From positions 8,943-72,942 of the forward strand of contig JAUNDE010000008.1 in NCBI GenBank assembly GCA_030526265.1: 64,000 bases of DNA. The letters are read 5' to 3'. This DNA comes from Eubacteriales bacterium. Lineage in GTDB: Bacteria > Bacillota > Clostridia > Lachnospirales > Lachnospiraceae. Positions 25,443 to 43,412 of the stretch are shown here, piece after piece; positions within the stretch are counted from its first letter, which is position 1; every line of letters begins with the position of its first letter. The notes under the pieces were generated by a model. That model was not told the DNA's origin. It ran no database searches and worked only from the letters and a program-made list of their open reading frames with translations. Position numbers and translations under genes: made by a program.

Positions 25443-25446
25443 ATAA

Positions 25447-26382: not shown

Positions 26383-26476
26383 TCATGGTACTTTCTTCGG
26401 AAGCGTTCGATTTTTAAAAATAGTACGATTATTAAATGAAAAACTACATAGTCAAAAGAAAAAAAGGAGAAGAATT

Positions 26477-27367
26477 ATGAAAAAGAGATTTTTAGCATCA
26501 ATGTTTGCAGCAGTTCTGGTACTTGGAATGATGGGATGTGGAAATAACGCGTCTGAGGAAAGCAGCGAGCCAGAGGCTGCGGAAGAGACAACTGAGGAAA
26601 CAGATCAGTTTGATGATACAACGGTGACCATATTTGCGGCAAAGAGTTTGAATGGTGTGGTGGATGAGCTGATTTCAATGTATAATGAAACACAGCCGAA
26701 TGTGGAGATTGTTACAAGCTATGACAGTTCCGGAACACTGATGGAGCAGATCGAGGAAGGAGCGGCCTGTGACGTTTTCTTCTCAGCAGCTCAGAAACAG
26801 ATGGATCAGCTGGAAACAGACGAACTGGTGGTAGATGGAACCAGAGCAAATGTAGTGAACAATCAGGTATGCGTGGTTACCTATAAAGACAGCGGCACAG
26901 GTGTGACCGGTCTTGAGAATATCGCAGACGCAGAGAGCTTTGCACTGGCAGACGGAAGTGTTCCGGTCGGAAAATACACCCGTCAGGCTATGGTAAATGT
27001 AGGCATGCTTCCGGAAGTCGAGGATGTATCTGTCATTACAACACAGGAAGTTTCCGATGCGCTGAGTGGAATCGAGATTAATGAATGTGCGAATGTCGGC
27101 GCTGTTACTGCAGCAGTTGCAGAAGGATCCAATGAAGTCGGTACGGTATATAAATCAGATACATATGGTCTTGAGGATCAGCTTGAGATTCTGGAAATCG
27201 TAAGCTATGATCTGACCGGCAATGTGATTTATCCAATCGCTCAGATCGTAAATGAGGAAGCAGATGATCTTCAGAAAGAAGCAGCACTTGATTTTATCAG
27301 ATTCCTGACATCAGACGCTGCGAAGGAAGTATACGAGAAATATTATTTTGACACAGACGTAGAATAA
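26477..27367 (+). CDS. modA: Molybdate ABC transporter substrate-binding lipoprotein
   Basis: Lipobox LGMMGC; FAAKSL, SYDSSGTL, FFSAA, VPVGKY and VYKSD. Start at ATG 26477 after AGGAGA. Confidence 0.92.
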   Translation: MKKRFLASMFAAVLVLGMMGCGNNASEESSEPEAAEETTEETDQFDDTTVTIFAAKSLNGVVDELISMYNETQPNVEIVTSYDSSGTLMEQIEEGAACDVFFSAAQKQMDQLETDELVVDGTRANVVNNQVCVVTYKDSGTGVTGLENIADAESFALADGSVPVGKYTRQAMVNVGMLPEVEDVSVITTQEVSDALSGIEINECANVGAVTAAVAEGSNEVGTVYKSDTYGLEDQLEILEIVSYDLTGNVIYPIAQIVNEEADDLQKEAALDFIRFLTSDAAKEVYEKYYFDTDVE

Positions 27368-27381
27368 TCAGGAGGAACATT

Positions 27382-28086
27382 ATGGAAGAGATTATGGAAA
27401 TACTGAAAGAACTGGACTGGAGTCCGTTACTCATATCGCTTAAGACAGGGGTGGTGGCAACCATAATCTCTTTCTTTCTTGGGATATTTGCGGCGAGAAA
27501 GGTGATTAAGGCGGGACCGAAAGTAAAGGCAGTGGCAGATGGTATTCTGACGCTGCCAATGGTGCTGCCGCCTACAGTTGCGGGATTTTTTCTGCTTCTT
27601 CTGTTCAGCCGCAGAAGACCGCTTGGTATATATTTATATGAAAATTTTGATATTAAAGTGGTACAGACCTGGCTTGGCTGCATCATCGCAGCCACAGTCA
27701 TTGCATTTCCGTTGATGTACCGCAATGCCAGGGCGGCATTTGAGCAGGTTGATGTGAATCTTATTTATGCGGGTAGAACGCTTGGAATGAGCGAAACGGC
27801 TATTTTCTGGAAAGTTGTTGTGCCGACAGCAGGACCGGGAATCATATCGGGCACGATTCTTACGTTTGCCAGAGCCATGGGTGAATATGGAGCCACATCC
27901 ATGCTGGCAGGCAACATTCCGGGAAAGACAGGAACGATTTCCCAGAGAATAGCGATGGTCATACAGGACGGAGATTACCTGACCGCAGGTGTGTGGGTTA
28001 TCATCGTGATGCTGATTGCATTTGTGGTGATCTTTCTGATGAACCTGATTTCAGGTAAGAAGATGAAACAGGTAAAACGCTGGTAA
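27382..28086 (+). CDS. modB: Molybdate ABC transporter permease
   Basis: LPMVLPPTVAGF, FPLMYR and FARAMGEYGAT. Confidence 0.94.
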   Translation: MEEIMEILKELDWSPLLISLKTGVVATIISFFLGIFAARKVIKAGPKVKAVADGILTLPMVLPPTVAGFFLLLLFSRRRPLGIYLYENFDIKVVQTWLGCIIAATVIAFPLMYRNARAAFEQVDVNLIYAGRTLGMSETAIFWKVVVPTAGPGIISGTILTFARAMGEYGATSMLAGNIPGKTGTISQRIAMVIQDGDYLTAGVWVIIVMLIAFVVIFLMNLISGKKMKQVKRW

Positions 28087-28100
28087 GATAAAGGAGAAGA

Positions 28101-28598
28101 ATGGATATGGGAGAATTTACACATTTTAACAGGCAGGGTGAGGCCATCATGGTGGATGTCAGTGATAAAAAGGATACTGTAAGAGAGGCGATTGCGTCCG
28201 GAACGATCCGCATGTCAGAGGAATGCTATCTTCTGGTGAAAGATGGCGGTATGAAGAAAGGGGATGTGCCTGGGGTTGCCCGGATCGCCGGAATCATGGG
28301 TGCCAAGAAGACTTCGGAATTGATCCCGCTTTGTCACATCCTGAACTTAAGTAAAGTAGAGGTTGATTTTATCTTCCATGATGAAATCTGTGGAATCGAG
28401 GCCAGGTGTACGGCAAAGACGACGGGTAAGACCGGTGTGGAGATGGAAGCGCTGACCGGTGTAAGCGTGACGCTGCTTACCATTTACGATATGTGCAAGG
28501 CTGTGGATAAGGGAATGGAGATCGGAGAGATAAAATTGCTTCGCAAATCCGGCGGAAAGAGCGGATTGTGGGAACGGGGACAGACGTATGGCGATTAA
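28101..28598 (+). CDS. moaC: Cyclic pyranopterin monophosphate synthase MoaC
   Basis: [34 protein letters not shown] and KSGGKSG. Confidence 0.96.
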
Positions 28599-29658
28599 GG
28601 TAAGAATTGAGAAATCTGTGGGAAGGTTTAAGCTCGATGTGGGATTTCAGACGGAGAGCAGGCGAATCGGTATTCTGGGAGCATCCGGCTGCGGGAAAAG
28701 CATGACATTGAAGTGCATTGCCGGAATCGAAACGCCGGATCAGGGCAGTATTGTGATTGATGAACGTGTATTATATGACCGGAATGTCAATATCAAACCC
28801 CAGAAACGAAAGGTGGGTTACCTGTTCCAGAATTATGCACTGTTTCCCACAATGACTGTTGAGGATAACATCGGAGCAGGCCTTAAGGGGAAAAAAGAAG
28901 AGAAAAAGCAGATGATCAGTAAAATGATCGAAAAGTTCCGCCTGGAAGGGTTAAGAGATCGTTTGCCGGGAGAATTGTCAGGAGGGCAGCAGCAGAGAGT
29001 GGCGCTGGCAAGGATCATGGCATATGAGCCGGAGGTGATTCTTCTGGACGAGCCCTTTTCCGCGTTGGATGAATTTTTAAAGGATCGTTTGCAGCAGGAA
29101 TTGATGCAGATGCTTGAGGACTATGGTGGTACGGTAATTCTGGTATCTCACAGCCGGGATGAAATATACAGGTTCAGTGAAGAACTTATTATCATGGATG
29201 AGGGGAAAACCATCTGTCAGGGAAAGACAAAGGAAATCTTTGCTAATCCAGAATGGAAAGAAGCGGCAAGGCTGACCGGATGTAAGAATATCACAGAGGC
29301 GAAGCGTATAGACAGGCATCATGTGAGCGTGCCTGCATGGGGAGTTACGCTTATATTGCGGAAAGAAGTTCCTGAAGGTCTGCATTGGATCGGAGTCAGG
29401 GCGCATGATTTCATTCCAATATGGAAAAAGGCAGGAGAAGAAAAGCTGCAGAGGGATGAATCATCAGAAAATCGGATTCTGTTAGTGACAGACAGCGTGG
29501 CAGAGCTACCGTTTGAGAAAAAGTATTTTCTGAAGACAGCGTATGAAACAGAGCATATCTGCTGGTTTGTACAGCGAGAGCAATGGGATCTGCTGGATGA
29601 AAGGGGAATGCCGGACTATCTGGAGATTCCTGAAGAAAAAATTTTGTTGTTACAGTAA
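28588..29658 (+). CDS. modC: Molybdate ABC transporter ATP-binding protein
   Basis: [31 protein letters not shown] and VSH; in operon with modAB. Confidence 0.9.
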
Positions 29659-29673: not shown

Positions 29674-29710
29674 AAATGCGGCAAGGAGATGGATTCTCTT
29701 TGCCGCATTT
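29674..29710. terminator. Bidirectional terminator between modC and the cupin gene
   Basis: AAATGCGGCAAGGAGA/TCTCTTTGCCGCATTT stem. Confidence 0.75.
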
Positions 29711-29734: not shown

Positions 29735-30058
29735 TTAAAAGGAAACAGTAAGCTGCATCTTGAACTGCTCTTCTCCATACACCGCATGAGGGATATCTTT
29801 CGGCATAATAAGAGTTTCTCCCTCATTCAAAATAAACACTTCTCCACCCACAGTAAATCTGCCTGTACCTTCCAGCACGGTAACCATGGCATCACCACCG
29901 GACGCATGAGTCGAAATTTCTTCGCCTTTGTCAAAGGAAAAAATCGTCACACTCATCTTGTCGTTCTGTACCAGTGTTTTGCTGACTACCTGGCCTTCCT
30001 GATAATTCACTAAATCTTTCAGTTTCAAACATACCTGTTTTTCAATGTTTTTATACAT
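29735..30058 (-). CDS. Cupin domain protein
   Basis: QVVSKTL, FSFDKGEEISTHASGGDAMV.VLEG and IMPKDIPHAV cupin motifs; GGAGG RBS. Confidence 0.85.
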   Translation of the reverse strand: MYKNIEKQVCLKLKDLVNYQEGQVVSKTLVQNDKMSVTIFSFDKGEEISTHASGGDAMVTVLEGTGRFTVGGEVFILNEGETLIMPKDIPHAVYGEEQFKMQLTVSF

Positions 30059-30222
30059 GCGAATACCTCCGTCATATTTCGTTTATCATTATTATTTTCC
30101 AATATCTTGAAAATAATTTCAATCTTATTTTTATATCTGATTAACATCCATTTTCCTTGTCGGATACCATGAAAAAGGTATATAATTTCCATAGGATATA
30201 ACATACAGAAGGCGATAGGGAT

Positions 30223-30921
30223 ATGAATGGAAAAGAACGGTTAAGTGAGCTTGACTTTTTTAAGCATGTATCAGATGAAACATTGAATGAACTATGGGCT
30301 AAGGGAACGGTGGAACGATGTCTGAAGGGAACGGTGATACGCAGGGCGAAGGAATTGAATCAGAATGTCTATTTTCAGGTGAGCGGCAAGTCTGTCGTAT
30401 ACAATCTGACTCATACCGGAAGAAGAAAGATTATTTTTATATTGGGCAAAGGACATATGCTGAATGGACATATCATTCAGAATCATGTGGCTTCCCTTTT
30501 CATCGAGACAATTGAGGAAAGCAGTATCTTTCGCGTTCCAATCTCTGCTTTCATAAATGCAATGAAAAAAGATTTTACACTTGTGGAAGCCGTACTGACC
30601 GCACAGGAGACGAAAATCTGGAGACTTGGGCATCAGTTGAAAAATACGATGGGAAGTATTTATATGGAACGCAAACTTGCTGCAAAGCTTTGGAAATTAT
30701 CGAGAGATTTCGGAAAAGAAACGAAAGATGGCATCGAAATTGATCTTAATCTGCCGATCACCTTCCTGGCGGACATGCTTGGCGCACCGCGAGAGACAAC
30801 ATCGAGACTGTGCAGTACATTGATGGAGTATGATTTGATCAGAATCAATAAGAAAAGAATTACGATTGTGGACAAAGATCGAATGGCTCATTTTTATAAA
30901 ACAGGAGAATATTATTTATAA
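30223..30921 (+). CDS. Crp/Fnr family transcriptional regulator (HcpR/Dnr-like; no Fnr Cys cluster)
   Basis: N-terminal cNMP-binding-like domain; C-terminal ERKLAAKL...LPITFLADMLGAPRETTSR helix-turn-helix. Confidence 0.92.
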   Translation: MNGKERLSELDFFKHVSDETLNELWAKGTVERCLKGTVIRRAKELNQNVYFQVSGKSVVYNLTHTGRRKIIFILGKGHMLNGHIIQNHVASLFIETIEESSIFRVPISAFINAMKKDFTLVEAVLTAQETKIWRLGHQLKNTMGSIYMERKLAAKLWKLSRDFGKETKDGIEIDLNLPITFLADMLGAPRETTSRLCSTLMEYDLIRINKKRITIVDKDRMAHFYKTGEYYL

Positions 30922-30931
30922 TGCAAAAATC

Positions 30932-30974
30932 TGTGACTTTTGTCACGGATTTTTTTTGATAATTTTGAGACAAT
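30932..30974 (+). promoter_or_regulatory. Crp-family box at -41.5 plus extended -10 upstream of asrA; the same inverted repeat can also terminate the regulator gene
   Basis: TGTGA-CTTTTG-TCACG (30932-30947, centre 30939.5) and TG-A-GACAAT (30966-30974). Confidence 0.65.
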
Positions 30975-31007
30975 GTACTTAAATATAAAGACGCGAAAGG
31001 AGACATT

Positions 31008-31997
31008 ATGGGATATCAGTTATCAAAACAAGAAGCTTCAAAACTGTTTGCAAAATGGACAGAATGTTTTGACGTATTTGCTCCTGTTCTGAAAAAAGGA
31101 GAGGGATGTTTTTCGGATACGGATATCATCCGTTATGACAAAGTAAAGAATCTGGATGAGATTGAGTGGGAGAAAAAATCGGATTATTCATTCAAAGAGG
31201 CATTGCTGTCGATCAATCAGACTATTTTTTATTACACGGAAGATCAGACAACTGTTCCGAAAGGACCGGAAAAGGATCTTTTGATTTTCCTTCGTTCGTG
31301 TGACCTTCATGCGGTGAGGAGACTTGACGATATTTATCTGAACAATGGCTTTGAAGATCTCTACTATTCGAGAGTGCGCGAGCGGGCAAAATTCATTCTT
31401 ATGGGATGTGAGGAGACTTGTTCGACCGGATTTTGTGTAAGTATGGGAACAAACAGATCAGACAATTATGACGCATACATCAAACTGGACGGTGACGTAT
31501 GCTTCATGGACGTGAAATGTGCTGATCTGAACCCTGAAAATGCTGATGTGAAAGAAGTGGTTCCTGATTTCGTGTCAGAGAATAAGGAAAAAGTGACGCT
31601 GCCAAAGAATCTTTCCAATGAGAGCTTTACAAAGGAAATCTGGCAGGAGTACGGCGACCGCTGTATCGAATGTGGCAGATGTAATTTTGTATGTCCGACA
31701 TGTACCTGCTTCACCATGCAGGATATATTTTACAAAGATAATGCGAAGGTTGGAGAGCGAAGAAGAGTGTGGGCGTCGTGCCAGGTTGGAGGATACGATG
31801 AGATCGCCGGAGGAATTACATTCAGAAGAACCAAAGGCGACAAAGTTCGTTTTAAAGTCATGCACAAGATCCATGATCATGAAAAGCGCTTCGGATATCC
31901 GATGTGCGTAGGATGCGGACGCTGTGATGCAGTATGTCCGGAGTACATTTCCTATTCTAATTTGGTCAACCGGTTAGCAAAGGAGGAGAATGAATAA
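31008..31997 (+). CDS. asrA: Anaerobic sulfite reductase subunit A (Fe-S)
   Basis: FLRSCDLHA, RCIECGRCNFVCPTCTCF, RRRVWASC and CVGCGRCDAVCPEYI. Confidence 0.92.
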   Translation: MGYQLSKQEASKLFAKWTECFDVFAPVLKKGEGCFSDTDIIRYDKVKNLDEIEWEKKSDYSFKEALLSINQTIFYYTEDQTTVPKGPEKDLLIFLRSCDLHAVRRLDDIYLNNGFEDLYYSRVRERAKFILMGCEETCSTGFCVSMGTNRSDNYDAYIKLDGDVCFMDVKCADLNPENADVKEVVPDFVSENKEKVTLPKNLSNESFTKEIWQEYGDRCIECGRCNFVCPTCTCFTMQDIFYKDNAKVGERRRVWASCQVGGYDEIAGGITFRRTKGDKVRFKVMHKIHDHEKRFGYPMCVGCGRCDAVCPEYISYSNLVNRLAKEENE

Positions 31998-32788
31998 TGA
32001 AAAATGAATATATTCCTCAGTTGTCAAAAATTTTAAAAGTAGTGAAACATACAAATTTAGAATACACATTCACAATGGAATTTGAAGGAGATGTGAAACC
32101 GGGACAGTTCTTCGAAGTGTCAATTCCGAAATTTGGAGAGGCACCGATCTCGGTAAGCGGAATCGGAGAAGGGACTGTTGATTTTACGATCCGCCGTGTG
32201 GGCAAAGTGACAAACGAAATCTTTGAAAACTATGTTGGTGATTCTTTCTTTATCCGTGGACCATATGGAAATGGGTTTGATGTAGAGAATTACAAAGGAA
32301 AAGAAATCGTTGTTGTTGCCGGTGGTACAGGTCTTTCCCCTGTTCGTGGAGTCGTGGATTACTTTGCGGAACATACAGATGAAGCGGTAAGCACGACACT
32401 GATCTCAGGATTCAAATCTCCTGACGATGTGCTCTTCAAGGAAGATTTTGAAAGATGGAATGAAAAAATCAATGTAATCAAAACTGTCGACCGTGCACCG
32501 GAAGGATATGACGGACCGGTTGGAATGGTTACGCAGTACATTCCGGATCTTACATTTGAAAATATCAAAAATGCGGTATTTATCTGTGTAGGACCTCCGA
32601 TCATGATCAAATTTACAATCATGGCAATTCAGAAGCTTGGCGTGACAGATCAGCAGATCTGGGTTTCTCATGAGAGAAAGATGTGTTGTGGTCTTGGTAA
32701 ATGCGGACACTGCAGAATCGGCTCTACATATATCTGCCTTGACGGACCTGTATTTAACTATGTGGACGGAAAAGAATTAATCGATTAA
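31997..32788 (+). CDS. asrB: Anaerobic sulfite reductase subunit B (FAD/NAD, 2Fe-2S)
   Basis: PGQFFEVS, GEAPIS, IRGPYGNGF, AGGTGLSP, VGPPIM and ERKMCCGLGKCGHC...CLDGPVF. Confidence 0.93.
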   Translation: MKNEYIPQLSKILKVVKHTNLEYTFTMEFEGDVKPGQFFEVSIPKFGEAPISVSGIGEGTVDFTIRRVGKVTNEIFENYVGDSFFIRGPYGNGFDVENYKGKEIVVVAGGTGLSPVRGVVDYFAEHTDEAVSTTLISGFKSPDDVLFKEDFERWNEKINVIKTVDRAPEGYDGPVGMVTQYIPDLTFENIKNAVFICVGPPIMIKFTIMAIQKLGVTDQQIWVSHERKMCCGLGKCGHCRIGSTYICLDGPVFNYVDGKELID

Positions 32789-32800
32789 GGGGGCACTGGT

Positions 32801-33775
32801 ATGGGATTAGATATTAATACAAAGAAATTAAAGAAGAATGCATTCCGTGTATCAAAAGTTCGTGGAATCGGTGCATCCAGAATTCGTGTTCCAGGTGGTT
32901 ATCTGAATGCAGAAGTTCTCGGAATGGTTCAGGAAATTGCGCAGGAATATGGTAATGGATATGTGCATCTGACAACAAGACAGGGATTTGAGATCGAAGG
33001 TATCCGCTATGAAGACATGGATGAGATCAATAAAAAGCTTCAGCCAATCATCGACATGGTGGGAACGAATCAGACGGATCCGGGCACAGGATATGCTGCA
33101 TCGGGAACAAGAAATATCTCGGCCTGTATCGGAAATAATGTCTGTCCGTTTGCGAACTATAATACAGCGGAACTGGCAAGAAGGATCGATAAGGCGATAT
33201 TCCCGAATGACCTTCATTTCAAAATTGCGTGTACTGGATGTTCCAATGACTGTGCAAAGGCGAGAATGCATGATTTCGGCATTATCGGACAGACGATCCC
33301 ACAGTATGATCCGACACGCTGTGTGGCATGTCAGGCTTGTATCAAGGGCTGCAAGAGTTTGTCTGTAGATGCGCTTCGCATGGAAAATTACAAAATTATA
33401 AGAGATACAGAGAAATGTATCGGGTGCGGTGTCTGTATCACCAAATGTCCGACACGTGCGCTCACAAGAAGTCCGAAGAAATACTATAAGCTTGCAATCA
33501 TGGGAAGAACAGGAAAGAAGAATCCAAGACTGGGTCAGGATTTTCTTGTCTGGGCAGATGCCGACAATATCATTAAGATCATTCAGAATACATACGCATT
33601 TGTTGAAGAATATATTTCTCCGGATGCACCTGCAAGAAAAGAGCATATCGGCTACATTATTGACCGCGTAGGATTTGAAGAATATAAAAAATGGGCACTT
33701 AAAGATGTTGAACTGATGCCGGAGACCATCATGAAAGAATGCGTATACTGGAATGGTATCGATTTTAAACATTAG
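32801..33775 (+). CDS. asrC: Anaerobic sulfite reductase subunit C (siroheme-[4Fe-4S])
   Basis: RIRVPGG, HLTTRQGFEI, SACIGNNVC, KIACTGCSNDC (siroheme ligands) and two ferredoxin motifs CVACQAC..C and CIGCGVC..KC. Confidence 0.93.
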   Translation: MGLDINTKKLKKNAFRVSKVRGIGASRIRVPGGYLNAEVLGMVQEIAQEYGNGYVHLTTRQGFEIEGIRYEDMDEINKKLQPIIDMVGTNQTDPGTGYAASGTRNISACIGNNVCPFANYNTAELARRIDKAIFPNDLHFKIACTGCSNDCAKARMHDFGIIGQTIPQYDPTRCVACQACIKGCKSLSVDALRMENYKIIRDTEKCIGCGVCITKCPTRALTRSPKKYYKLAIMGRTGKKNPRLGQDFLVWADADNIIKIIQNTYAFVEEYISPDAPARKEHIGYIIDRVGFEEYKKWALKDVELMPETIMKECVYWNGIDFKH

Positions 33776-33790
33776 TGAGGGGAGAGCAGT

Positions 33791-35899
33791 ATGAAAAAAG
33801 TACAATCTATCTGTAATTATTGTGCGATTGATTGCAGTCTTGATTTTTTTGTAAATGAAGATGCGAATCAGATTGAAGCTGTGAAGCCTACACCTGGGTA
33901 TCCGGTCAATGACGGTTTCTGCTGTATCAAGGGCTTGTCGCTTGATAAACAGCAGACGGTTGTGGATAAACCACACACTCCGAGAGTCCGTATGCAGGAC
34001 GGCAGCTACGCATATCCGGGATGGGATTACACGTTTGCATATATTGCGAAACGCTTCAGAGAGATTCAGGAGAAATATGGATATGAAGCGATTGCAGGAA
34101 TTTCTACCGGACAGCTTACGATGGAGGAATTTGCGATTAACGGACATATTTTACGTGACCATATGCACACAAATGTGGATGGCAATACGAGACTTTGCAT
34201 GGCATCCGCTGTGGTTGCCCATAAGCAGAGTTACGGCTTTGATGCTCCCGGATATACACTGAAAGATTTAGAACTGTCTGACACGATCATACTGATCGGC
34301 TCTAATCCGGTTGTTGCGCATCCGATCGTATGGGATCGAATCAGAAAAAACACAGATAAAAAATTAATCGTGATCGACCCGAGAAGATCCGAGACAGCAA
34401 AAAATGCGGACTACCATTACCGGATTAAGTCCAAAATGGATTCAACACTTTTCTACGGACTTGCAAATTATTTTATTTCAAATGATCTGATTGACCATGC
34501 GTTTATCGAGACACATACCAATCGTTTTGAGGAATATAAAGAGTTCGTGAAAGATTTTCCGATGGAAAAGGTTGCAGCGGATACGGATCTGTCAGTAGAT
34601 GAGATCCATGAACTGATTGAACTGATCAAGAATGGAAAACGGGTATCGATGTGGTGGACAATGGGAATCAACCAGTCTCACAACGCGGTTCGTGCTGCAC
34701 AGTCTATCATCAATCTCCAGCTGCTGCTTGGCAATTATGGAAAACCAGGTACAGGAGCGAACTCGATCACCGGTCAGTGTAATGCGATGGGATCGCGATT
34801 ATTCTCCAACCAGGCATCACTATACGGACATCCATTCGATAATCCGGATGCAAGGAAGAAGGTTGCAGGTATTTTCCACTGCGACGAGGAGATTCTGGCA
34901 AAAGGTCCGACGAAGACATACAACCAGATAATCGAGGGAATCAACAATGGGGACATCAAAGCACTTTGGATTATCTGTACGAACCCGAGGCATTCCTGGA
35001 CAAACAATGTGACATTTAAAAAAGCGATTGAGAACCTTGAGTTTTATGTCGTTCAGGATATTTATGATGATATTGAGAGTGCGGATGATTATGATGTATT
35101 TCTCCCGGCAGTACCAGGAATCAAGAAGGAAGGTACGTATGTGAATCTGGAACGTCGTCTTGGCCGTATGATTCCGGCTTTGAAACCTGATGAAGATGAG
35201 AAAAATGATTATCAGATCATGTACGGAATCGCGAAGGCGATGGGATTCGAGGACATCATCGAGTATTGGAAGACGCCGGAAGACTGCTTTAATCTGATGA
35301 GAGCGTGTTCAAAGGGACGTCCATTCGATTTTACAGGAGTGTCATACAGGGGACTTGAGTTCTCGCATGGTGTTCAGTGGCCATTCAGGGAAGGCGAAGT
35401 GTTAGAAGAAGATGAGCGAAGACTGTACGCGGACGGTAAGTTTTTCCATCCGGATGGAAAAGCAGTCTTTATGTTCGAGCCGGTACCGGAAAATCCGCTG
35501 CCGCAGACAGAAGAATTCCCTTATATTTTTAATACAGGACGTGGTTCCGTAGGTCAGTGGCATACGCAGTCAAGAACAAGAGAAGTTCAGTTCGTTGAGG
35601 GTGTCAGTGCCCATCATCCATATTGTTACATTCATCCGGCTGTGGCAGACAAGTTTGGTCTGAAGCATGAAGACTGGATTATGATTCATTCCTGTAACGG
35701 GGAGAGCGCTCCGTTTGCAGTTCGTGTTACAGATGATGTGAAAGAGGATGAGATATATTGTCCGATTCATTATATCGAATGTAACAGACTGACCCCGTCT
35801 GTCTATGATCCGTATTCAAAAGAGCCAAGCTATAAGGCTGCAGTCGTAAATATTAGACCGGTTGAGGAGGGATTTGTATATGTACCGTATAAAAATTGA
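33791..35899 (+). CDS. Cytoplasmic molybdopterin oxidoreductase, Nas/NarB-type nitrate reductase catalytic subunit
   Basis: CNYCAIDC...FCCIKG ([4Fe-4S]), NTRLCMASA (Mo-Cys ligand), WWTMGINQ, SITGQCNAMG and NTGRGSVGQWHT; no Tat signal. Confidence 0.82.
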   Translation: MKKVQSICNYCAIDCSLDFFVNEDANQIEAVKPTPGYPVNDGFCCIKGLSLDKQQTVVDKPHTPRVRMQDGSYAYPGWDYTFAYIAKRFREIQEKYGYEAIAGISTGQLTMEEFAINGHILRDHMHTNVDGNTRLCMASAVVAHKQSYGFDAPGYTLKDLELSDTIILIGSNPVVAHPIVWDRIRKNTDKKLIVIDPRRSETAKNADYHYRIKSKMDSTLFYGLANYFISNDLIDHAFIETHTNRFEEYKEFVKDFPMEKVAADTDLSVDEIHELIELIKNGKRVSMWWTMGINQSHNAVRAAQSIINLQLLLGNYGKPGTGANSITGQCNAMGSRLFSNQASLYGHPFDNPDARKKVAGIFHCDEEILAKGPTKTYNQIIEGINNGDIKALWIICTNPRHSWTNNVTFKKAIENLEFYVVQDIYDDIESADDYDVFLPAVPGIKKEGTYVNLERRLGRMIPALKPDEDEKNDYQIMYGIAKAMGFEDIIEYWKTPEDCFNLMRACSKGRPFDFTGVSYRGLEFSHGVQWPFREGEVLEEDERRLYADGKFFHPDGKAVFMFEPVPENPLPQTEEFPYIFNTGRGSVGQWHTQSRTREVQFVEGVSAHHPYCYIHPAVADKFGLKHEDWIMIHSCNGESAPFAVRVTDDVKEDEIYCPIHYIECNRLTPSVYDPYSKEPSYKAAVVNIRPVEEGFVYVPYKN

Positions 35900-36305
35900 T
35901 CGTAACCGTTGTATCGGTTGTCTTATGTGCGTTACATCGTGCTGTGTCTCTCATGATACGCATGATGCGAGAAATCGTGTCGTAATCGACTCGCAGACAA
36001 AACCGGCACCAATCTTTTGCCGTCACTGTGACCGTCCGGAATGTGCGATTACCTGTATGACCGGTGCGATGAGAAAAGATGAGAAAACAGGATATGTGAT
36101 GTACGACAGAGAGCACTGCGCACATTGTTTTATGTGTGTGATGGGATGTCCGTACGGTGTGCTGAAGCCGGATGCGATTCACAATACCGAAGTAATGAAA
36201 TGTGATATGTGTGTTCACAGGAGTGAAGATGGCTCGGGGAATCCGATGTGTGTCGAGAAATGTCCGATGCATGCGATTACATTAGTGGAGGTGAGCGAAT
36301 CATGA
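35880..36305 (+). CDS. 4Fe-4S ferredoxin-type electron transfer subunit (HydN/DmsB-like)
   Basis: CIGCLMCVTSC, CRHCDRPECAITC, CAHCFMCVMGCP and KCDMC...CVEKC. Start at ATG 35880 after GAGGAGG. Confidence 0.9.
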   Translation: MYRIKIDRNRCIGCLMCVTSCCVSHDTHDARNRVVIDSQTKPAPIFCRHCDRPECAITCMTGAMRKDEKTGYVMYDREHCAHCFMCVMGCPYGVLKPDAIHNTEVMKCDMCVHRSEDGSGNPMCVEKCPMHAITLVEVSES

Positions 36306-37558
36306 AATTTGTAGTAATTGGAGCAAGTGCTGCGGGAACAAATACTGTTCGTAAACTCCGCGAACTGAACCCGGATGCTCAGATTGTGATGATTTCAGAG
36401 GATACAGCGATCTATTCCAGATGTATCCTGTATCATCACCTCAAAGGCGAACGTGATCTGGAAGGACTGAACTTTGTAGGACCAGACTTTGCGGAGCGTT
36501 TTCGGGTTGAATGGATCAAGGGTGTAAAGGCAAGCGGCATTGATACAGACCGAAATGTAGTATTGCTTGAGAATGGGGACGAAGTTTCCTATGATAAGCT
36601 CTGCATCGCGACAGGTTCTCATCCGAATTTCTTTCCGATTCCGGGACTCCGTGAAGGGAAGAATGTGACAGGCTTCCGTAATTTTTCTGACGTGGAATTT
36701 ATTGAAGAGAGAATTGAACAGGCGGAAAATATCTTTGTTCTGGGAGCCGGTCTTGTCGGTATCGATGTAGTGGCAGGTCTCATCAAATATAAAAAGCATA
36801 TTACGATTGCAGATATGGCCCCTTATATGCTGGGAATCCAGCTGGATGAATACTCGGCAGGCGTGTATCAGGAAATGTTCGCGGCTCACAATGTGGATCA
36901 GTATTATAATATGGGAGTCAGAGATTTTGTCCTGAATGAAGAGGGAAATGTTTACAAAGTCATTTTGAATGACGGAACAGAGATTCCGACCGATCTGGTC
37001 GTGAATTGTGCAGGTGTACGTGCAACAGTAGAGTTCCTGGAGGGAAGTAAGATTGAGACGGATCGGTTCGGACTTGTATTTGATACGCATGGGCAGACAA
37101 ATATACCGGATGTATATGGTGCGGGCGATGTGTCAGGGCGCGGTCCGATCTGGCCGGTAGCTGTGAAAGAAGGAATGATTGCCGCTTATAACATGAGCGG
37201 GGTTGAGATGACAATGGATGATTTTTTTACTTCCAAATCTACAATGAATTTCCTCGGACTTGCGAGCATGTCACTTGGAAAAGCAAACAGGTATGATGAT
37301 TCCTATACAGAAGAAATCTTTAAAGATCCGGAAAAGAAAATATATAAGAAGATCGTACACAAAGATGGTGTGATCACAGGTGCGATCCTTCAGGGAGACC
37401 TTTCTTACTGTGGAGTTTTGACTCAGCTGATCCGGCGAAAGATTGATGTTTCAAAGATTAAAAAGCCATTATTTGACGTCGATTATTCTGATTTCTTCCG
37501 CGTGAAAGATAACTTTGAGTTCTTGTACGAAAAGGAAGAAGAGATTGAGGTACTGTAA
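36302..37558 (+). CDS. NAD(P)H:FAD oxidoreductase (NirB N-terminal/rubredoxin reductase-like)
   Basis: VIGASAAG, YSRCIL, LCIATGS, VLGAGLVG and VYGAGDV. Start at ATG 36302 (ATGA overlap). Confidence 0.88.
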   Translation: MKFVVIGASAAGTNTVRKLRELNPDAQIVMISEDTAIYSRCILYHHLKGERDLEGLNFVGPDFAERFRVEWIKGVKASGIDTDRNVVLLENGDEVSYDKLCIATGSHPNFFPIPGLREGKNVTGFRNFSDVEFIEERIEQAENIFVLGAGLVGIDVVAGLIKYKKHITIADMAPYMLGIQLDEYSAGVYQEMFAAHNVDQYYNMGVRDFVLNEEGNVYKVILNDGTEIPTDLVVNCAGVRATVEFLEGSKIETDRFGLVFDTHGQTNIPDVYGAGDVSGRGPIWPVAVKEGMIAAYNMSGVEMTMDDFFTSKSTMNFLGLASMSLGKANRYDDSYTEEIFKDPEKKIYKKIVHKDGVITGAILQGDLSYCGVLTQLIRRKIDVSKIKKPLFDVDYSDFFRVKDNFEFLYEKEEEIEVL

Positions 37559-37603
37559 AAAGCGGTTATCCAGAAACCAGATGAAAAGAAAAGGAATAGA
37601 GTT

Positions 37604-38533
37604 ATGGAGAGATTAGAAAGAATTCCTGTTCCGGTGATTCCTACCTTTGTTGGTGCACTCACACTGAGCAACATATATGGCGGAATGGGATATACATGGG
37701 TGCGGCATTTATCAATGTGGGCGGCAACAGTGTTTATGATTTGTTATATTATAAAAATCGTAAAGTACCCGTCTACATGCAAAAAAGAATATTGTCAGGT
37801 GATCCCGGGCAGTTTATATGCTGCGTTCGCGATGGTATTGATGATACTTGGAAGTTACTATTATGATTATGCTCCGGCTGTCGGAAAAGCAATCTGGTCG
37901 ATCGCAATCGTGATCCATGCAACACATATTTTGATTTTTACATATCGCAATGTCATCAGAAAGCGCGATATGAATACATTTATGCCAAGCTGGTATGTGA
38001 CATACAATGGAATCATGGTCAGCTGCGTGACTGGCGGTGCCATGAATGCATCCGGTGTGCTTCGTGTGATTGTATTTTACGGAATTGCAGTTTATTTTGT
38101 AATCCTGCCGTTCATGCTCAGACGCCTGCTTACGGTAGAAGTCAAGGATGCGGTATATCATACAATGGCAGTTCTTCTTGCACCGTGCAGTTTGTGTGTT
38201 GTGAGTTATCTGAATGTGATTCAGAATCCAAATGCAGTCGTTCTCTATATTTTGTATGCATGCGTATTGGCTTCGTTATTATTTATCATTGTCAAGCTTC
38301 CGAAATTCTTCGCATTTTCATTTGTACCGGGTTATGCAGGGCTTACATTCCCGATGGCTATCGGTACGGTTGCGACATCAAAGATGACGGCGTTCCTTAC
38401 GGCGCAGGGAAAGGATTCTCTGGCTGCTATGACAACGCAGCTGAACGGAATTCAGCTTTATCTGACAACGATGATTGTGGGATATGTCCTTGTTAATTTT
38501 GTTGTCATGCTACTAAAGATCGAACGTAAATAG
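37604..38533 (+). CDS. TDT (TehA/SLAC1/Mae1/Ssu1) family anion transporter
   Basis: About ten hydrophobic segments, FMPSWYV and the TM9-like motif LTFPMA. Confidence 0.8.
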   Translation: MERLERIPVPVIPTFVGALTLSNIYGGMGYTWVRHLSMWAATVFMICYIIKIVKYPSTCKKEYCQVIPGSLYAAFAMVLMILGSYYYDYAPAVGKAIWSIAIVIHATHILIFTYRNVIRKRDMNTFMPSWYVTYNGIMVSCVTGGAMNASGVLRVIVFYGIAVYFVILPFMLRRLLTVEVKDAVYHTMAVLLAPCSLCVVSYLNVIQNPNAVVLYILYACVLASLLFIIVKLPKFFAFSFVPGYAGLTFPMAIGTVATSKMTAFLTAQGKDSLAAMTTQLNGIQLYLTTMIVGYVLVNFVVMLLKIERK

Positions 38534-38612
38534 AGAAAAGGGCAAAGTCTGGATTTGTGAAATGTTTATAGAATAAATATTCATTTCAATGAATTTTTAT
38601 TAAAATTAGGAG

Positions 38613-38641
38613 TTGATTGAAGAAAGGGTTTCCGTTATAAT
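38613..38641 (+). promoter_or_regulatory. Sigma-A promoter of gltBD
   Basis: TTGATT-17 bp-TATAAT. Confidence 0.7.
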
Positions 38642-38694
38642 AGACAAAAAAATAGTTGGGGCTTTAGACCCCGGCATCATTATATGGAAAGCAA

Positions 38695-38748
38695 CACAAG
38701 GGCGTGCTGTGATTTTACGAAAGTGAAATTGCGGTGCGCCCTTTTATG
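38695..38748 (+). promoter_or_regulatory. Leader attenuator: ANTAR-like hairpin overlapping a terminator upstream of gltB
   Basis: CAC-AAGGGC-GTG overlaps the 5' arm of a 19-bp stem (38700-38741, GAAA loop, several G-U pairs) followed by TTTT. Confidence 0.6.
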
Positions 38749-38876
38749 TATCAGGGAAATGCCTGCAGTATGCACCTGATACATAAAACGCACTTTGTGC
38801 GCTGATGCGCAGCACGCTCGCGCGCGAAGATTGCGCATGAAACGCAATCTATCAGATATGAAGGGAGAATGCACAG

Positions 38877-41800
38877 ATGAGTGGATTTGAGAGCCAGGGC
38901 CTTTACAGGCCAGAGTTTGAACACGATAACTGCGGTATTGGCGCGGTGGTCAATATCAAAGGAAAGAAATCTCACAAGACCGTCGAGAATGCGCTGGAGA
39001 TCGTGGAGAATCTGGAACACAGAGCAGGTAAAGACGCAGAGGGAAAGACTGGTGACGGTGTGGGAATCCTGATGCAAGTATCACATAGATTTTTCAAAAA
39101 AGTATGTAAGCCGCTTGGGATCGAGCTTGGATCAGAGCGGGATTACGGTGTTGGAATGTTCTTCTTTCCGCAGGATGAGCTGAAAAGAAATCAGGCAAAG
39201 AAGCTCTTTGAGGTGATCACTGAGAAAGAGGGGATGGAATTCCTCGGCTGGAGAAAGGTTCCAGTTCAGGCGGATGTGCTCGGGAAAAAAGCGCTCGAGT
39301 GTATGCCGTGTATTGAGCAGGCATTTATCAAGCGTCCGAAAACAATTGAAAAAGGTCTGGACTTTGACCGCAGACTGTATGTGGTACGCAAGGTGTTTGA
39401 GCAGAGCAATGACACTTATGTATGTTCTCTTTCCAGCAGAACGATCGTATATAAAGGAATGTTTCTCGTTAAACAGCTGAGACTGTTCTTCGGGGATCTT
39501 CAGGATAAAGACTATGAATCTGCAGTTGCCATTGTGCATTCGAGATTCAGCACGAACACGAACCCGAGCTGGGAACGTGCGCATCCGAACCGGTTTATCG
39601 TACATAACGGAGAGATCAACACCATTCGGGGAAATGCGGATAAGATGCGCGGAAGGGAAGAGACGATGGAATCTTCCTACCTGAAAGGAGAAATGCTGAA
39701 GGTGCTTCCTGCGATCGACACGTCCGGTTCCGATTCTGCCATGCTTGACAATACGCTGGAATTTATGGTGATGAACGGAATGGAACTTCCTCTGGCAGTG
39801 ATGATCTCAATTCCGGAGCCATGGGCAAACAACCGGAGTATGCCTCAGAATCAGAAGGACTTCTATCAGTACTATGCGACGATGATGGAACCATGGGATG
39901 GACCTGCATCCATTCTGTTCTCAGACGGAGACTGTATGGGAGCAGTGCTTGATAGAAACGGACTTCGTCCGTCCAGATATTATATTACCGATGACGATAT
40001 GCTCATATTATCTTCGGAGGTAGGAGTTCTGAAAGAGGATCCTGCCAAAATCGTTATGAAAGAAAGAATTCATCCGGGCAAAATGCTGCTCGTAGATATG
40101 GTAAAGGGCTGTGTGATCGATGATCAGGAGCTCAAAAATATGTATGCAGACCGTCAGCCATACGGTGAATGGCTGGACGGCGAGCTGATTGAGCTGAAGG
40201 ATCTGAAGATCCCGAATGAATCCATTCCATCGTATACGAATGAGGAGTGTAAGCGGCTGCAGAAGGCGTTCGGCTATTCTTATGAAGATGTGCGGACAAA
40301 TATCCTTCCTATGGCGGTAAATGGAAGTGAAAGCATTTCCTCTATGGGTATCGATGTGCCGCTTGCAGTGCTTTCGGATAAGAGACAGTCAATGTTCGGA
40401 TATTTTAAGCAGCTGTTCGCGCAGGTGACAAATCCTCCGATTGATGCGATCCGTGAAAAAATCGTGACCTCCACAGCCGTTTATCTCGGGCGGGACGGAA
40501 ACCTTCTGAAAGATCAGGCTGTGAACTGCCGTATGCTGAAGGTGAACAATCCGATCCTGACAGATACTGATCTGATCAAGATCAAACATATGAAGCAGGA
40601 AGGATATAAGGTAGAGGTGATTCCGACTACCTATTATAAGAACTCCAACCTGGAAACGATGATGGATTATCTGTTCGTGCAGGTGGATAAGGCGATCAAT
40701 GAGGGTGCGAACATCCTGATCCTTTCCGACCGTGGCGTGGATGAATTCCATGTGGCGATCCCGTCTCTTCTCGCAGTATCGGGCGTACAGCAGCATCTCG
40801 TGCGCACGAAGAAGAGAACAACAGTTGGAATTATCATTGAGACCGGTGAGCCGAAAGCAGTCCATGAATTTGCGACGCTTCTCGGATATGGCGCCTGTGC
40901 GGTCAACCCATATCTGGCATACGCAACGATCCGCCAGCTGATCGACGAGAACATGATCCAGAAGGATTATTATGCGGCAGTCGATTCGTTTGCAAATGGA
41001 ATCCTTTCCGGAATCGTCAAGATTGCTTCCAAGATGGGTATTTCGACAATACAGTCTTATCAGGGCGCAAAGATTTTCGAAGCGATCGGTCTCAGGCAGT
41101 CGTTTATCGATAAATATTTTACAAATACAGTGAGCAGAATCGGCGGTATCGGCATTCAGGAGATTGCGGCGGACTATGCGGCAATGCACACAGAGGCATT
41201 TGATCTGCTCGGATATGATACCGATATGACACTGGACAGCATCGGACAGCACAAGAGCAAGAGTCAGGGTGAGCAGCATCTTTACAACCCACAGACGATC
41301 CACATGCTGCAGCAGTCTACGAGAACCGGAAACTACGAAATGTTTAAGCAGTATACAGAACTCGTAAATGAAGAAGGTGCGGGCATCAATCTGCGCGGTC
41401 AGTTTGAATTCAATTTCCCTGAGAAGGGCGTGCCGATCGAGGAAGTGGAGCCGGTAGACGAGATCGTAAAGAGATTCAAGACAGGAGCCATGTCTTATGG
41501 TTCCATCTCCAAGGAGGCGCACGAGACGCTGGCCATTGCCATGAATTCGCTTCACGGCAAGTCAAACAGTGGCGAAGGCGGCGAGGAGATTGAAAGACTT
41601 GACACGGACAGATGCTCTGCGATCAAGCAGGTCGCTTCCGGGCGATTCGGTGTGACGAGCCGCTATCTCGTGAGTGCACAGGAGATCCAGATTAAGATGG
41701 CACAGGGCGCAAAGCCTGGTGAGGGCGGGCATCTTCCGGCAGGAAAGGTGTACCCGTGGATCGCAAAGACACGTTATTCGACACCGGGTGTGGGACTGAT

Positions 41801-43400
41801 CTCACCACCGCCGCACCATGATATTTATTCCATTGAAGATCTGGCTCAGTTGATCTATGACTGTAAAAATGCAAATAAAGATGCCCGCATTTCGGTAAAA
41901 CTGGTATCCGAGGCGGGAGTCGGAACGATCGCAGCGGGTGTTGCCAAAGCGGGAGCAGGACTGATCCTGATCTCCGGCTATGACGGAGGAACCGGTGCGG
42001 CACCGGGAAGTTCGATCCACAATGCAGGACTTCCGTGGGAGCTCGGACTCGCAGAGACACATCAGACACTTCTCCAGAACGGACTGCGTGACCGTGTCCG
42101 CATCGAGACGGACGGTAAGCTGATGAGCGGAAGAGATGTCGCGATCGCAGCGATCCTCGGAGCGGAGGAATTCGGATTTGCCACAGCGCCGCTCGTGACG
42201 ATGGGCTGTGTGATGATGAGAGTCTGCAATCTGGACACCTGTCCGGTCGGCATCGCGACACAGAATCCGGAGCTTCGGAAGCGCTTTAGCGGAAAGCCGG
42301 AGTACGTAATCAATTTCATGCGGTTTATGGCAGAAAACTTACGTGAATATATGGCGAAGCTTGGTGTCCGTTCCATTGATGAACTCGTAGGACGCACCGA
42401 CCTGCTGAAGGTGAAAGAGCATCCGAAGTCAAGATATGCGGCAGCGCTTGATCTGTCCGGAATTCTTCATCAGGGTTATGCCGGATCAAAGGAGCAGATC
42501 TATAATCCTGCAAGAAAATATGACTTTGAACTCGAAAAGACACTGGATGAGCGGGTGCTGATGAAAGAACTGAAAGCTTCTCTTGAGAAAAAACAGAAGA
42601 AGAGCATTCATGTGAAAGTATCCAATGTTGACCGTACATTCGGAACGATCTTCGGATCTGAGATCACGAAGCGCTATCCGGAAGGACTGCCGGAGGATAC
42701 GTACGTGATCCATTGTGAGGGTGCGGGCGGACAGAGCTTCGGCGCATTCATCCCGAAAGGACTGACGTTAGAGCTTACCGGTGACAGCAATGACTACTTC
42801 GGAAAAGGTCTGTCAGGCGGAAAATTAGTTGTGTTCCCGCCAAAGGAAGTGACTTACAAACACGATGAAAATATTATTATCGGAAATGTGGCACTTTACG
42901 GTGCGACCGGCGGATATGCTTACATCAACGGTGTGGCAGGAGAACGTTTCTGCGTCCGCAACTCCGGAGCGATGGCAGTTGTGGAAGGTGTCGGAGATCA
43001 CGGATGCGAATATATGACCGGAGGCCGTGTGGCGATTCTTGGCCAGGTAGGCAAGAACTTTGCGGCAGGTATGAGCGGCGGCATTGCCTACGTGCTGGAT
43101 GAGGACAATACACTGTACCGTAAGATTAATAAAGGAATGGTAAATATGGTTCATGTGACATCCAAGTACGATATCATCGAGCTGAAGAGCATGATCGAAA
43201 ACCATGTAAAACATACGAAATCTGAGATCGGTGCTCAGATCCTGGAGCATTTTGATGAGTATCTGCTGAAATTCAAGAAGGTCATCCCATTTGACTATGA
43301 GAAGATGCTGACCTATGTCCTTCAGATGGAGGAAAAGGGCTTAAGCAGTGAACAGGCCAAGATTGAGGCGTTCTATGCGATCAGAAACGGAAAGGAATAG
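38877..43400 (+). CDS. gltB: Glutamate synthase large subunit
   Basis: HDNCGIG (catalytic Cys), HSRFSTNT, HNGEINT, EPWDGP, AMSYGSIS, KQVASGRFG, QGAKPGEGG, CVMMRVCNLDTC and GXGXXG-repeat C-terminal domain. Confidence 0.98.
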   Translation: MSGFESQGLYRPEFEHDNCGIGAVVNIKGKKSHKTVENALEIVENLEHRAGKDAEGKTGDGVGILMQVSHRFFKKVCKPLGIELGSERDYGVGMFFFPQDELKRNQAKKLFEVITEKEGMEFLGWRKVPVQADVLGKKALECMPCIEQAFIKRPKTIEKGLDFDRRLYVVRKVFEQSNDTYVCSLSSRTIVYKGMFLVKQLRLFFGDLQDKDYESAVAIVHSRFSTNTNPSWERAHPNRFIVHNGEINTIRGNADKMRGREETMESSYLKGEMLKVLPAIDTSGSDSAMLDNTLEFMVMNGMELPLAVMISIPEPWANNRSMPQNQKDFYQYYATMMEPWDGPASILFSDGDCMGAVLDRNGLRPSRYYITDDDMLILSSEVGVLKEDPAKIVMKERIHPGKMLLVDMVKGCVIDDQELKNMYADRQPYGEWLDGELIELKDLKIPNESIPSYTNEECKRLQKAFGYSYEDVRTNILPMAVNGSESISSMGIDVPLAVLSDKRQSMFGYFKQLFAQVTNPPIDAIREKIVTSTAVYLGRDGNLLKDQAVNCRMLKVNNPILTDTDLIKIKHMKQEGYKVEVIPTTYYKNSNLETMMDYLFVQVDKAINEGANILILSDRGVDEFHVAIPSLLAVSGVQQHLVRTKKRTTVGIIIETGEPKAVHEFATLLGYGACAVNPYLAYATIRQLIDENMIQKDYYAAVDSFANGILSGIVKIASKMGISTIQSYQGAKIFEAIGLRQSFIDKYFTNTVSRIGGIGIQEIAADYAAMHTEAFDLLGYDTDMTLDSIGQHKSKSQGEQHLYNPQTIHMLQQSTRTGNYEMFKQYTELVNEEGAGINLRGQFEFNFPEKGVPIEEVEPVDEIVKRFKTGAMSYGSISKEAHETLAIAMNSLHGKSNSGEGGEEIERLDTDRCSAIKQVASGRFGVTSRYLVSAQEIQIKMAQGAKPGEGGHLPAGKVYPWIAKTRYSTPGVGLISPPPHHDIYSIEDLAQLIYDCKNANKDARISVKLVSEAGVGTIAAGVAKAGAGLILISGYDGGTGAAPGSSIHNAGLPWELGLAETHQTLLQNGLRDRVRIETDGKLMSGRDVAIAAILGAEEFGFATAPLVTMGCVMMRVCNLDTCPVGIATQNPELRKRFSGKPEYVINFMRFMAENLREYMAKLGVRSIDELVGRTDLLKVKEHPKSRYAAALDLSGILHQGYAGSKEQIYNPARKYDFELEKTLDERVLMKELKASLEKKQKKSIHVKVSNVDRTFGTIFGSEITKRYPEGLPEDTYVIHCEGAGGQSFGAFIPKGLTLELTGDSNDYFGKGLSGGKLVVFPPKEVTYKHDENIIIGNVALYGATGGYAYINGVAGERFCVRNSGAMAVVEGVGDHGCEYMTGGRVAILGQVGKNFAAGMSGGIAYVLDEDNTLYRKINKGMVNMVHVTSKYDIIELKSMIENHVKHTKSEIGAQILEHFDEYLLKFKKVIPFDYEKMLTYVLQMEEKGLSSEQAKIEAFYAIRNGKE

Positions 43401-43412
43401 GAGGGGTGAACG

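Follow-up and report, generated by a model that had tools for sequence, protein, structure and literature searches.

The closest described system is the asr plus nar nitrate cluster of Clostridium ljungdahlii and related acetogens. In C. ljungdahlii, asr homologues (CLJU_RS11690-11680) are located beside a nitrate symporter gene and the nar genes CLJU_c23710-30 (Nagarajan 2013; Aklujkar 2017; Klask 2022). In this organism, nitrate induces the pathway genes over 400-fold, including the nar-adjacent asr homologues, which in 2013 were modelled as the nitrite reductase (PMC4222884; restated in PMC5640608); deletion of the three homologous nar subunit genes abolishes nitrate reduction (PMC9124969). 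The same layout, with the same assignment, has been reported for Clostridium sp. AWRP (PMC6757427), and in Acididesulfobacillus acetoxydans, where AsrABC is up 195-fold in the proteome on nitrate, it has been proposed to serve as the nitrite reductase (Egas et al., 2024; PMC10949509). Here we analyze a 64,000-nucleotide (nt) stretch of contig JAUNDE010000008.1 from a gut member of the Lachnospiraceae (positions 8,943-72,942, forward strand; hereafter the window, to which all coordinates below refer), in particular a block of seven genes at 31008-38533 that consists of asrABC, narABC and a gene for a TDT/SLAC1-family channel. We conclude that this block is probably a single Crp-controlled operon for cytoplasmic reduction of nitrate to ammonium driven by reduced nicotinamide adenine dinucleotide (NADH). 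Given the studies cited above, the idea of AsrABC as a nitrite reductase, which a first-pass annotation of this DNA had put forward, is not new; what is new is the breadth of the asr-nar linkage, the common Crp box and the consistent TDT partner. A search of a limited literature collection for an asr-nar cluster in gut Lachnospiraceae returned nothing relevant.

Like the C. ljungdahlii cluster, the window encodes a three-subunit soluble nitrate reductase (catalytic, iron-sulfur and NADH oxidase-like subunits) beside an asrABC-type siroheme reductase. The two differ in the transporter, which is described as a proton/nitrate symporter in C. ljungdahlii and is a TDT/SLAC1 channel in the window, and in the host, an acetogen as opposed to a gut Lachnospiraceae bacterium. 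In the related acetogen C. drakei, the gene order is nar-MFS-FNT-asr, in contrast to asr-nar-TDT in the window. The relatedness to C. ljungdahlii is judged by way of C. drakei and C. carboxidivorans (59-60% NarA identity) rather than through the proteins of C. ljungdahlii itself; NarA of C. ljungdahlii and that of C. perfringens are not among the best 120 matches of the C. drakei query. C. perfringens reportedly possesses a soluble NarABC nitrate reductase with adjacent molybdenum cofactor (Moco) genes, said to have been described by Fujinaga and colleagues in 1999. Likened by this description only, it shares with the window the cytoplasmic three-subunit build, the Moco neighbours and a fermentative host; to our knowledge, linkage of that nar locus to asrABC or to a TDT gene has not been described.

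Several other systems share individual features with the window. The A. acetoxydans system is similar in that AsrABC is considered the nitrite reductase of nitrate ammonification, but its nitrate reductase is the membrane-bound NarGHI, which is not encoded next to asr, and a NirA-like protein competes for the role. Salmonella-type AsrABC has the same subunits, gene order and domains, whereas the asr genes of the window differ in being part of an operon with a nitrate reductase. The FNT3-asrABC loci of Peptostreptococcaceae (e.g., C. difficile) likewise contain a Crp-type asrABC module with an AsrC of the same clade and an anion channel partner, which is an FNT instead of a TDT protein, and lack a nitrate reductase; FNT3 is said to be the hydrosulfide channel of the HSC work by Czyzewski and Wang in 2012. 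Finally, NirBD/NasBC are similarly cytoplasmic and NADH-driven and combine a siroheme nitrite reductase with a Nas-type molybdenum (Mo) enzyme, and NarC of the window resembles the N-terminal flavin adenine dinucleotide (FAD) domain of NirB. Unlike in NirBD, the flavin, Fe-S and siroheme functions of the window system are distributed among separate AsrB, AsrA and AsrC proteins, respectively, and all matches to the NirB and NirD families stay below the cut-offs.

All seven genes of the block are on the plus strand. The first three are asrA (31008-31997), encoding an iron-sulfur subunit of 329 amino acids (aa; TIGR02910, 463 bits vs. a cut-off of 323); asrB (31997-32788), encoding a 263 aa subunit with an FAD/NAD(H)-binding and a [2Fe-2S] domain (TIGR02911, 417 bits vs. 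289; NAD_binding_1 and DHODB_Fe-S_bind); and asrC (32801-33775), encoding the 324 aa siroheme-[4Fe-4S] catalytic subunit with a ferredoxin insert (TIGR02912, 501 bits vs. 324; NIR_SIR, NIR_SIR_ferr and Fer4). The three subunits are thus encoded in the asrA-asrB-asrC order, and each scores above the NCBIfam cut-off of its AsrABC equivalog. These are followed by narA (33791-35899), for a predicted cytoplasmic catalytic subunit of 702 aa with a Mo-bis(pyranopterin guanine dinucleotide) site (Pfam domains Molybdop_Fe4S4, Molybdopterin and Molydop_binding); narB (35880-36305), for a 141 aa electron-transfer subunit with four Cys4 motifs (Fer4_11); narC (36302-37558), for a 418 aa FAD/NADH oxidoreductase subunit (Pyr_redox_2 and Rubredoxin_C); and the gene for the 309 aa TDT/SLAC1-family anion channel (37604-38533, PF03595). 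The starts of narB and narC were corrected according to gene calls on an identical public contig. The genes asrA and asrB overlap by 1 nt and are followed by gaps of 12 nt (asrB-asrC) and 15 nt (asrC-narA), the latter with a GAGGGGAG ribosome-binding site; narA and narB overlap by 20 nt, narB and narC by 4 nt, and narC is separated from the TDT gene by 45 nt. The first-pass description of seven co-oriented genes of these families with gaps of 45 bp or less thus agrees with the open reading frames (ORFs), domain hits and spacing.

Active site motifs support the classification of NarABC as a predicted cytoplasmic Nap/Nas-type nitrate reductase of the clostridial NarABC kind, as opposed to a formate dehydrogenase. 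The whole-protein scores of NarA are ambiguous: it obtains 455 bits with Fdh-alpha, 387 with NasC and 363 with NasA in NCBIfam, in each case under the family's own cut-off (666 bits for Fdh-alpha, TIGR01591), and its top match in PDB is the formate dehydrogenase FdhH (E = 4.7e-79). The active site, by contrast, is unambiguous. The motifs RLCMASA, WTMGINQ and GQCNAMG are all present, and the segments NVDGNPRLCMASAV and SLTGQPNACG of Desulfovibrio desulfuricans NapA (2jim) align to NVDGNTRLCMASAV and SITGQCNAMG of NarA, respectively. Opposite Sec140-His141 of FdhH, NarA contains Cys136-Met137, that is, the Cys ligand followed by Met of the Nap/Nas-type site, and opposite Arg333 of FdhH it contains Thr327, so that the catalytic His and Arg of formate dehydrogenases are both replaced; the T327-G-Q-C-N-A-M-G segment fits the TGQxNAxG pattern. 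The Nas/Nap signatures and the lack of a twin-arginine translocation (Tat) signal noticed previously are borne out by these motifs and by the N-terminus of NarA (MKKVQSICNYC, i.e., MKKVQSICNYCAIDC), which starts with the [4Fe-4S] Cys motif (Molybdop_Fe4S4 spans residues 1-53) and contains no signal peptide or Tat signal. NarB and NarC, encoded directly downstream, correspond to the subunit types described for the nar cluster of C. ljungdahlii. Among solved structures, the best relative of NarC is 8c0z_E, which is the FAD subunit of a pterin enzyme complex linked to NAD. NarA is 60% identical to the C. carboxidivorans 'nitrate reductase' and 59% identical to C. drakei NarA, and in some sources its homologues are labelled 'assimilatory nitrate reductase catalytic subunit'.

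Conservation of the asr-nar linkage was surveyed by aligning NarA against one genome per species; 426 genomes contained a relative, and the species-level counts given here refer to the loci of the best 80, which were fetched. The asrABC genes are located immediately upstream of narA, on the same strand, in 56 of the 80 loci and within 10 kb in another arrangement in 5, including a Tissierella locus in which asrC lies directly upstream of narA but was missed by the script filter. In 11 loci, the flank is too short for a verdict, so that adjacency is kept in 61 of the 69 informative loci. The median distance between the asrC stop and the narA start is 18 nt, and it does not exceed 39 nt in 48 of the 56 loci. 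The carriers include many Lachnospiraceae, among them Enterocloster, Lacrimispora and metagenome-assembled genomes (MAGs) labelled Dorea, Roseburia or Fimousia, as well as Tissierella, Fusobacterium ulcerans, MAGs of Erysipelotrichales and Oscillospiraceae, and Clostridium. For example, the order in the complete genome of C. butyricum is crp-asrABC-narABC-TDT-Moco genes, and in C. drakei it is narABC-MFS-FNT-asrABC-crp, with all genes co-oriented. The conserved adjacency and tight spacing, together with the common Crp box discussed below, show that asrABC is functionally wired to narABC, as had been suggested from the window alone.

The closest relatives of the window are found in a Lachnospiraceae MAG from horse faeces and in Candidatus Fimousia MAGs (NarA 86-87% identical). 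The similarity is mosaic (L008-L010, L071/L074): in the loci with 86-87% identical NarA, AsrC is just 83% identical to that of the window, and in Ca. Fimousia stercorigallinarum (L074), AsrC is 91% identical and NarA just 61%. The asr and nar modules thus appear to have recombined between lineages. An apparent AsrC-NarA fusion in the Tissierella locus mentioned above (L038) was rejected as an ORF-extension artefact because a stop codon is present. In one metagenome contig (L091, 10990-13074), asrABC is intact, but two ORFs of 390 and 274 aa stand in place of a single narA homologue; either narA is a pseudogene here or the contig is misassembled.

The gene adjacent to the operon (30223-30921, plus strand) encodes a Crp/Fnr-family regulator (cNMP_binding and HTH_Crp_2). 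A box that reads TGTGA-N6-TCACG (TGTGACTTTTGTCACG, 30932-30947) is located between this gene and asrA, 61-76 nt before the start codon of asrA. The cNMP-binding domain, the Crp-type helix-turn-helix and this palindromic candidate cognate box place the protein in the CRP/FNR family; its recognition helix, RETTSR, is of the CRP type, its only cysteines are Cys33 and Cys197, and the N-terminal oxygen-sensing Cys cluster of the FNR type was looked for in the protein and is absent. A Crp-family gene is found near the operon in 55 of the 80 loci, in most of them immediately upstream. When TGTGA-N6-TCACA was searched for within 260 nt 5' of the first operon gene, with one outer mismatch allowed, the box was detected in 44 of 69 species-level loci, compared to 10 of 4765 control windows (0.2%) drawn from these loci. 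It is present in 32 of 49 loci in which asrA is the first gene and in 12 of 20 in which narA is first, so that the asr genes are located behind a regulatory site that elsewhere heads nar-only operons.

The previous claim of one promoter and no internal terminator carries no statistical weight by itself, as the consensus scans do not exceed the level of shuffled sequences either for promoter-like sites (28 vs. 23.5+/-4.6) or for terminator-like sites (10 vs. 6.7+/-2.1). The two strongest hairpins of the region do bracket the unit, namely, a terminator-like 16-pair stem 3' of modC, between the Moco block and the regulator gene (29674-29710, plus strand), and a terminator-like 20-pair stem between the TDT gene and gltB (38699-38742, plus strand). 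The window sequence was found in none of the RNA runs searched. At an Enterocloster clostridioformis-like locus (L029), two probable RNA runs, whose RNA nature is guessed, cover asrA through TDT continuously at a depth of 7-10, with contigs that span the asrC-narA junction and with patchy or empty flanks; as weak evidence, this coverage is compatible with a single transcript.

The TDT protein scores well above the gathering threshold of PF03595 (63.4 bits vs. 27.9, residues 36-302), falls short of the TIGR00816 subfamily cut-off (54 vs. 237) and weakly matches the structures of Haemophilus influenzae TehA. Its gene follows narC in all species-level loci with enough flank, with the exception of C. 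drakei, where genes for an MFS transporter and an FNT channel occupy this position. This non-homologous replacement is the main argument for the transport of nitrate and/or nitrite by the TDT protein, for which we propose a role in importing nitrate and/or exporting nitrite. An earlier suggestion is that TehA-like transporters encoded in NsrR regulons extrude nitrite (Rodionov et al.). In one metagenome locus (L111, 7113-12500), the TDT gene is apparently located between narB and narC rather than after narC.

Under the proposed mechanism, the FAD of NarC would accept electrons from NADH, and the four [4Fe-4S] clusters of NarB would relay them to NarA, the Nap/Nas-type Mo enzyme, which would reduce nitrate to nitrite with two electrons. 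AsrB, with its FAD and [2Fe-2S] cluster, would also take electrons from NADH and deliver them via AsrA to the siroheme-[4Fe-4S] site of AsrC, where nitrite would be reduced to ammonium with six electrons. Judging by the cofactor domains, the balance would be eight electrons and four NADH. The TDT/SLAC1-type channel may conduct nitrate inward and/or nitrite outward, and the adjacent Crp-family regulator, in response to a presumed signal, is predicted to bind the TGTGA-N6-TCACA box before asrA. AsrABC probably still reduces sulfite, too. The likeliest role of the operon is that of an electron sink combined with nitrite removal, with the ammonium available for assimilation. The joint arrangement of asr and nar genes is confirmed and occurs widely, and the mechanism proposed for it is plausible. 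With regard to the nitrate-to-ammonium interpretation as originally proposed, the Mo enzyme type and the wiring of the two modules stand, but the novelty of the inference, AsrABC as the sole candidate and its repurposing are unsupported or overstated.

The nearest solved structure to AsrC is the sulfite/nitrite reductase domain of Fsr (7np8). Residues R27, R104 and K141 of AsrC align with R355, R423 and K462 of Fsr, respectively, and in every AsrC examined His139 stands at the position of Fsr Lys460. For nitrite reduction by Fsr, an apparent Km of 2.5 uM has been reported, and its Lys460 has been called 'perfectly conserved'. His139 was considered as a nitrite-specific signature and dropped, as it is also found in FNT-linked AsrC and in standalone AsrC of the C. 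botulinum type. A neighbour-joining (NJ) distance tree of AsrC was built from a set in which the Salmonella sequence is absent; the search among 50%-identity representatives yielded mainly fragments and few full-length outgroups. In this tree, nar-linked and FNT-linked AsrC, which the first-pass annotation had proposed to compare, do not separate, and a distinct nar-linked subfamily was accordingly rejected. The only deep split is that of the C. botulinum/C. paraputrificum-type standalone enzyme, which we assume to group with the characterised Salmonella enzyme; AsrC of the window lies outside this clade (40-45% identity, Arg27 vs. Ser).

In an AsrC-centred scan of metagenome contigs, the informative loci whose AsrC shares 76% or more identity with that of the window number 24, and 13 of these are nar-linked. 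Relatives of AsrC with 77-86% identity are found without nar genes, whereas at 55-64% identity linkage to FNT predominates, in many cases behind the same Crp box. Thus, crp-asrABC is an independent module that is often but not always joined to crp-narABC-TDT. At the FNT-linked asrABC locus of a Peptostreptococcaceae MAG (L095, 3514-11362; also L096 and L097), the neighbours encode a flavodiiron protein, ScdA/RIC, a pyridoxamine-oxidase-like protein and a hemerythrin-PAS-DUF1858 protein, a context that resembles a nitrosative-stress setting for a supposed sulfite reductase. Such neighbourhoods leave room for nitrite handling throughout the clade, to which the common 'anaerobic sulfite reductase' found in gut Lachnospiraceae, Tissierellales and Peptostreptococcaceae belongs. 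That the entire clade, nar-linked, FNT-linked and standalone, consists primarily of nitrite or nitrite/nitric oxide-stress reductases, with the TDT partner being a nitrate/nitrite channel related to plant SLAC1, is a tentative suggestion that we consider possible although doubtful.

Several observations weigh against AsrABC being the dedicated nitrite reductase of a nitrate-to-ammonium operon. The R/R/H/K pocket is common to all AsrC types, except that residue 27 is Ser in AsrC of the C. botulinum type, and in the NJ tree an FNT-linked Peptostreptococcaceae AsrC nests beside the nar-linked AsrC of Tissierella. Eleven of the 24 informative metagenome loci are crp-asrABC without nar, so that AsrABC is also used where there is no local nitrate reductase. 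Given that the nar-linked AsrC is neither a distinct clade nor an active-site variant and that 11 of 24 close relatives are nar-less, the claim that AsrABC has been 'repurposed' is not supported. In 8 of the 80 species-level loci, including those of Hungatella effluvii, Blautia hominis and C. paraputrificum, asrABC is absent from the available flank. The literature contains no AsrABC purified or assayed with nitrite, and the 'RNA' label of the two runs that cover the Enterocloster locus is a guess. Among the main ORFs of at least 120 aa in the 64-kb window, there is no NirB/NirD, NrfA, Hcp or NirA-like protein, in line with the earlier remark that nirB/nirD, nrfA and hcp are missing from the window. 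The designation of AsrABC as the 'only candidate' for nitrite removal, however, was overstated because it rests on 64 kb of one genome, and hcp, nrfA or nirA-like genes may be located elsewhere in that genome.

Among the alternatives, a mainly assimilatory system, in which the ammonium would feed the downstream glutamate synthase and ammonium/PII genes and expression would occur under nitrogen limitation, appears unlikely. The gltB and gltD genes and an amtB-glnK fusion directly follow the operon (38877-46921) and hint at assimilation, but this context is not conserved elsewhere, with glt/amt genes beside the operon in 0 of the 80 species-level loci, and a strong hairpin lies between the TDT gene and gltB. 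NarA homologues are sometimes labelled as assimilatory. The regulator is of the Crp type and the box is CRP-like, as opposed to a nitrogen regulator and its site. C. ljungdahlii grows on nitrate as a nitrogen source, but it consumes nitrate even when nitrogen is sufficient. Taken together, the non-conserved glt/amt context, the intervening hairpin, the non-nitrogen regulator and the nitrate use by nitrogen-sufficient C. ljungdahlii favour the sink role.

It is improbable, in our estimate, that AsrABC is a plain sulfite reductase that shares the operon as another soluble NADH sink under one anaerobic/redox regulator, with nitrite leaving through the TDT channel or being passed to an Hcp, NrfA or NirA-like enzyme encoded elsewhere. 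All three subunits score above the AsrABC equivalog cut-offs, and in close relatives of AsrC the same Crp box accompanies a Crp-asrABC module that stands by itself or is paired with an FNT channel; yet it is not obvious how sulfite supply would be linked to nitrate, and across 56 species asrC and narA are a median of 18 bp apart. The proposal that TDT/TehA-like transporters extrude nitrite would fit this scheme, but nitrite excretion would waste 6 of the 8 electrons of the sink capacity, and in C. drakei nitrate MFS and FNT genes are located between nar and asr. The pathway model of C. ljungdahlii requires Hcp as well, whereas the published induction of asr homologues is by nitrate. Finally, the possibility that the Mo subunit belongs to a formate dehydrogenase or to some other Mo enzyme that does not act on nitrate, in which case the operon would not concern nitrate at all, can be dismissed as very improbable: Fdh-alpha and FdhH do give the best NCBIfam (below the cut-off) and PDB scores, but Cys-Met replaces Sec/Cys-His and Thr the essential Arg333, the NarA motifs are nearly letter-identical to those of NapA, and homologues with 59-60% identity belong to acetogen clusters like that of C. 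ljungdahlii, where nar deletion ended nitrate reduction.

If AsrABC is a nitrite reductase, as we consider probable for the nar-linked form, a complete soluble pathway from nitrate to ammonium would be present in many Firmicutes that live by fermentation in gut and soil, and in some Fusobacteria; it goes unseen because its components are annotated as 'sulfite reductase' and 'molybdopterin oxidoreductase'. This would bear on how commensal Clostridia use nitrate when the gut is inflamed, on the retention versus loss of nitrogen in anoxic habitats, and on inventories of gut hydrogen sulfide genes, in which asrABC of Clostridia is at present counted as a sulfide source (PMC11482014). Should the nitrite reading hold for the whole clade, gut surveys would misassign much of the Clostridia asrABC signal to hydrogen sulfide genes. 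The cultured carriers, C. butyricum, Enterocloster, Lacrimispora and Tissierella praeacuta, make the biochemistry of AsrABC with nitrite accessible.

Upstream of the regulator gene, a block of Moco biosynthesis and molybdate uptake genes (22371-29658, plus strand; NCBIfam and Pfam) encodes a MoCF_biosynth protein, an XdhC-like maturation factor, MoaA, MOSC-MoaB, ModA, ModB, MoaC and ModC; mobA was not found within the 64-kb window with the NCBIfam and Pfam models. Moco homologues flank the nar genes in many related loci as well. A small cupin-domain gene is located on the minus strand (29735-30058) between the modC terminator and the Crp regulator gene. The leader of about 340 nt upstream of gltB (38540-38876) contains the 20-pair hairpin followed by additional inverted repeats, and this region may be a gltBD regulatory leader and not solely the terminator of the nar operon; in an Rfam scan of the window, only a tRNA was matched, and the gltB leader had no match. 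The 581 aa ORF at 45176-46921 encodes an ammonium transporter domain fused to a C-terminal P-II (GlnK-like) domain. A tRNA gene (21781-21853) is located just 5' of the block that includes the Moco, regulator and asr-nar genes, and the G+C content is 0.39-0.42 over 30000-34000, compared to about 0.45-0.47 in the flanks; both features would fit a putative acquired island. Further downstream, pyruvate formate-lyase and its activating enzyme are encoded at 49992-53038, consistent with a fermentative anaerobe.

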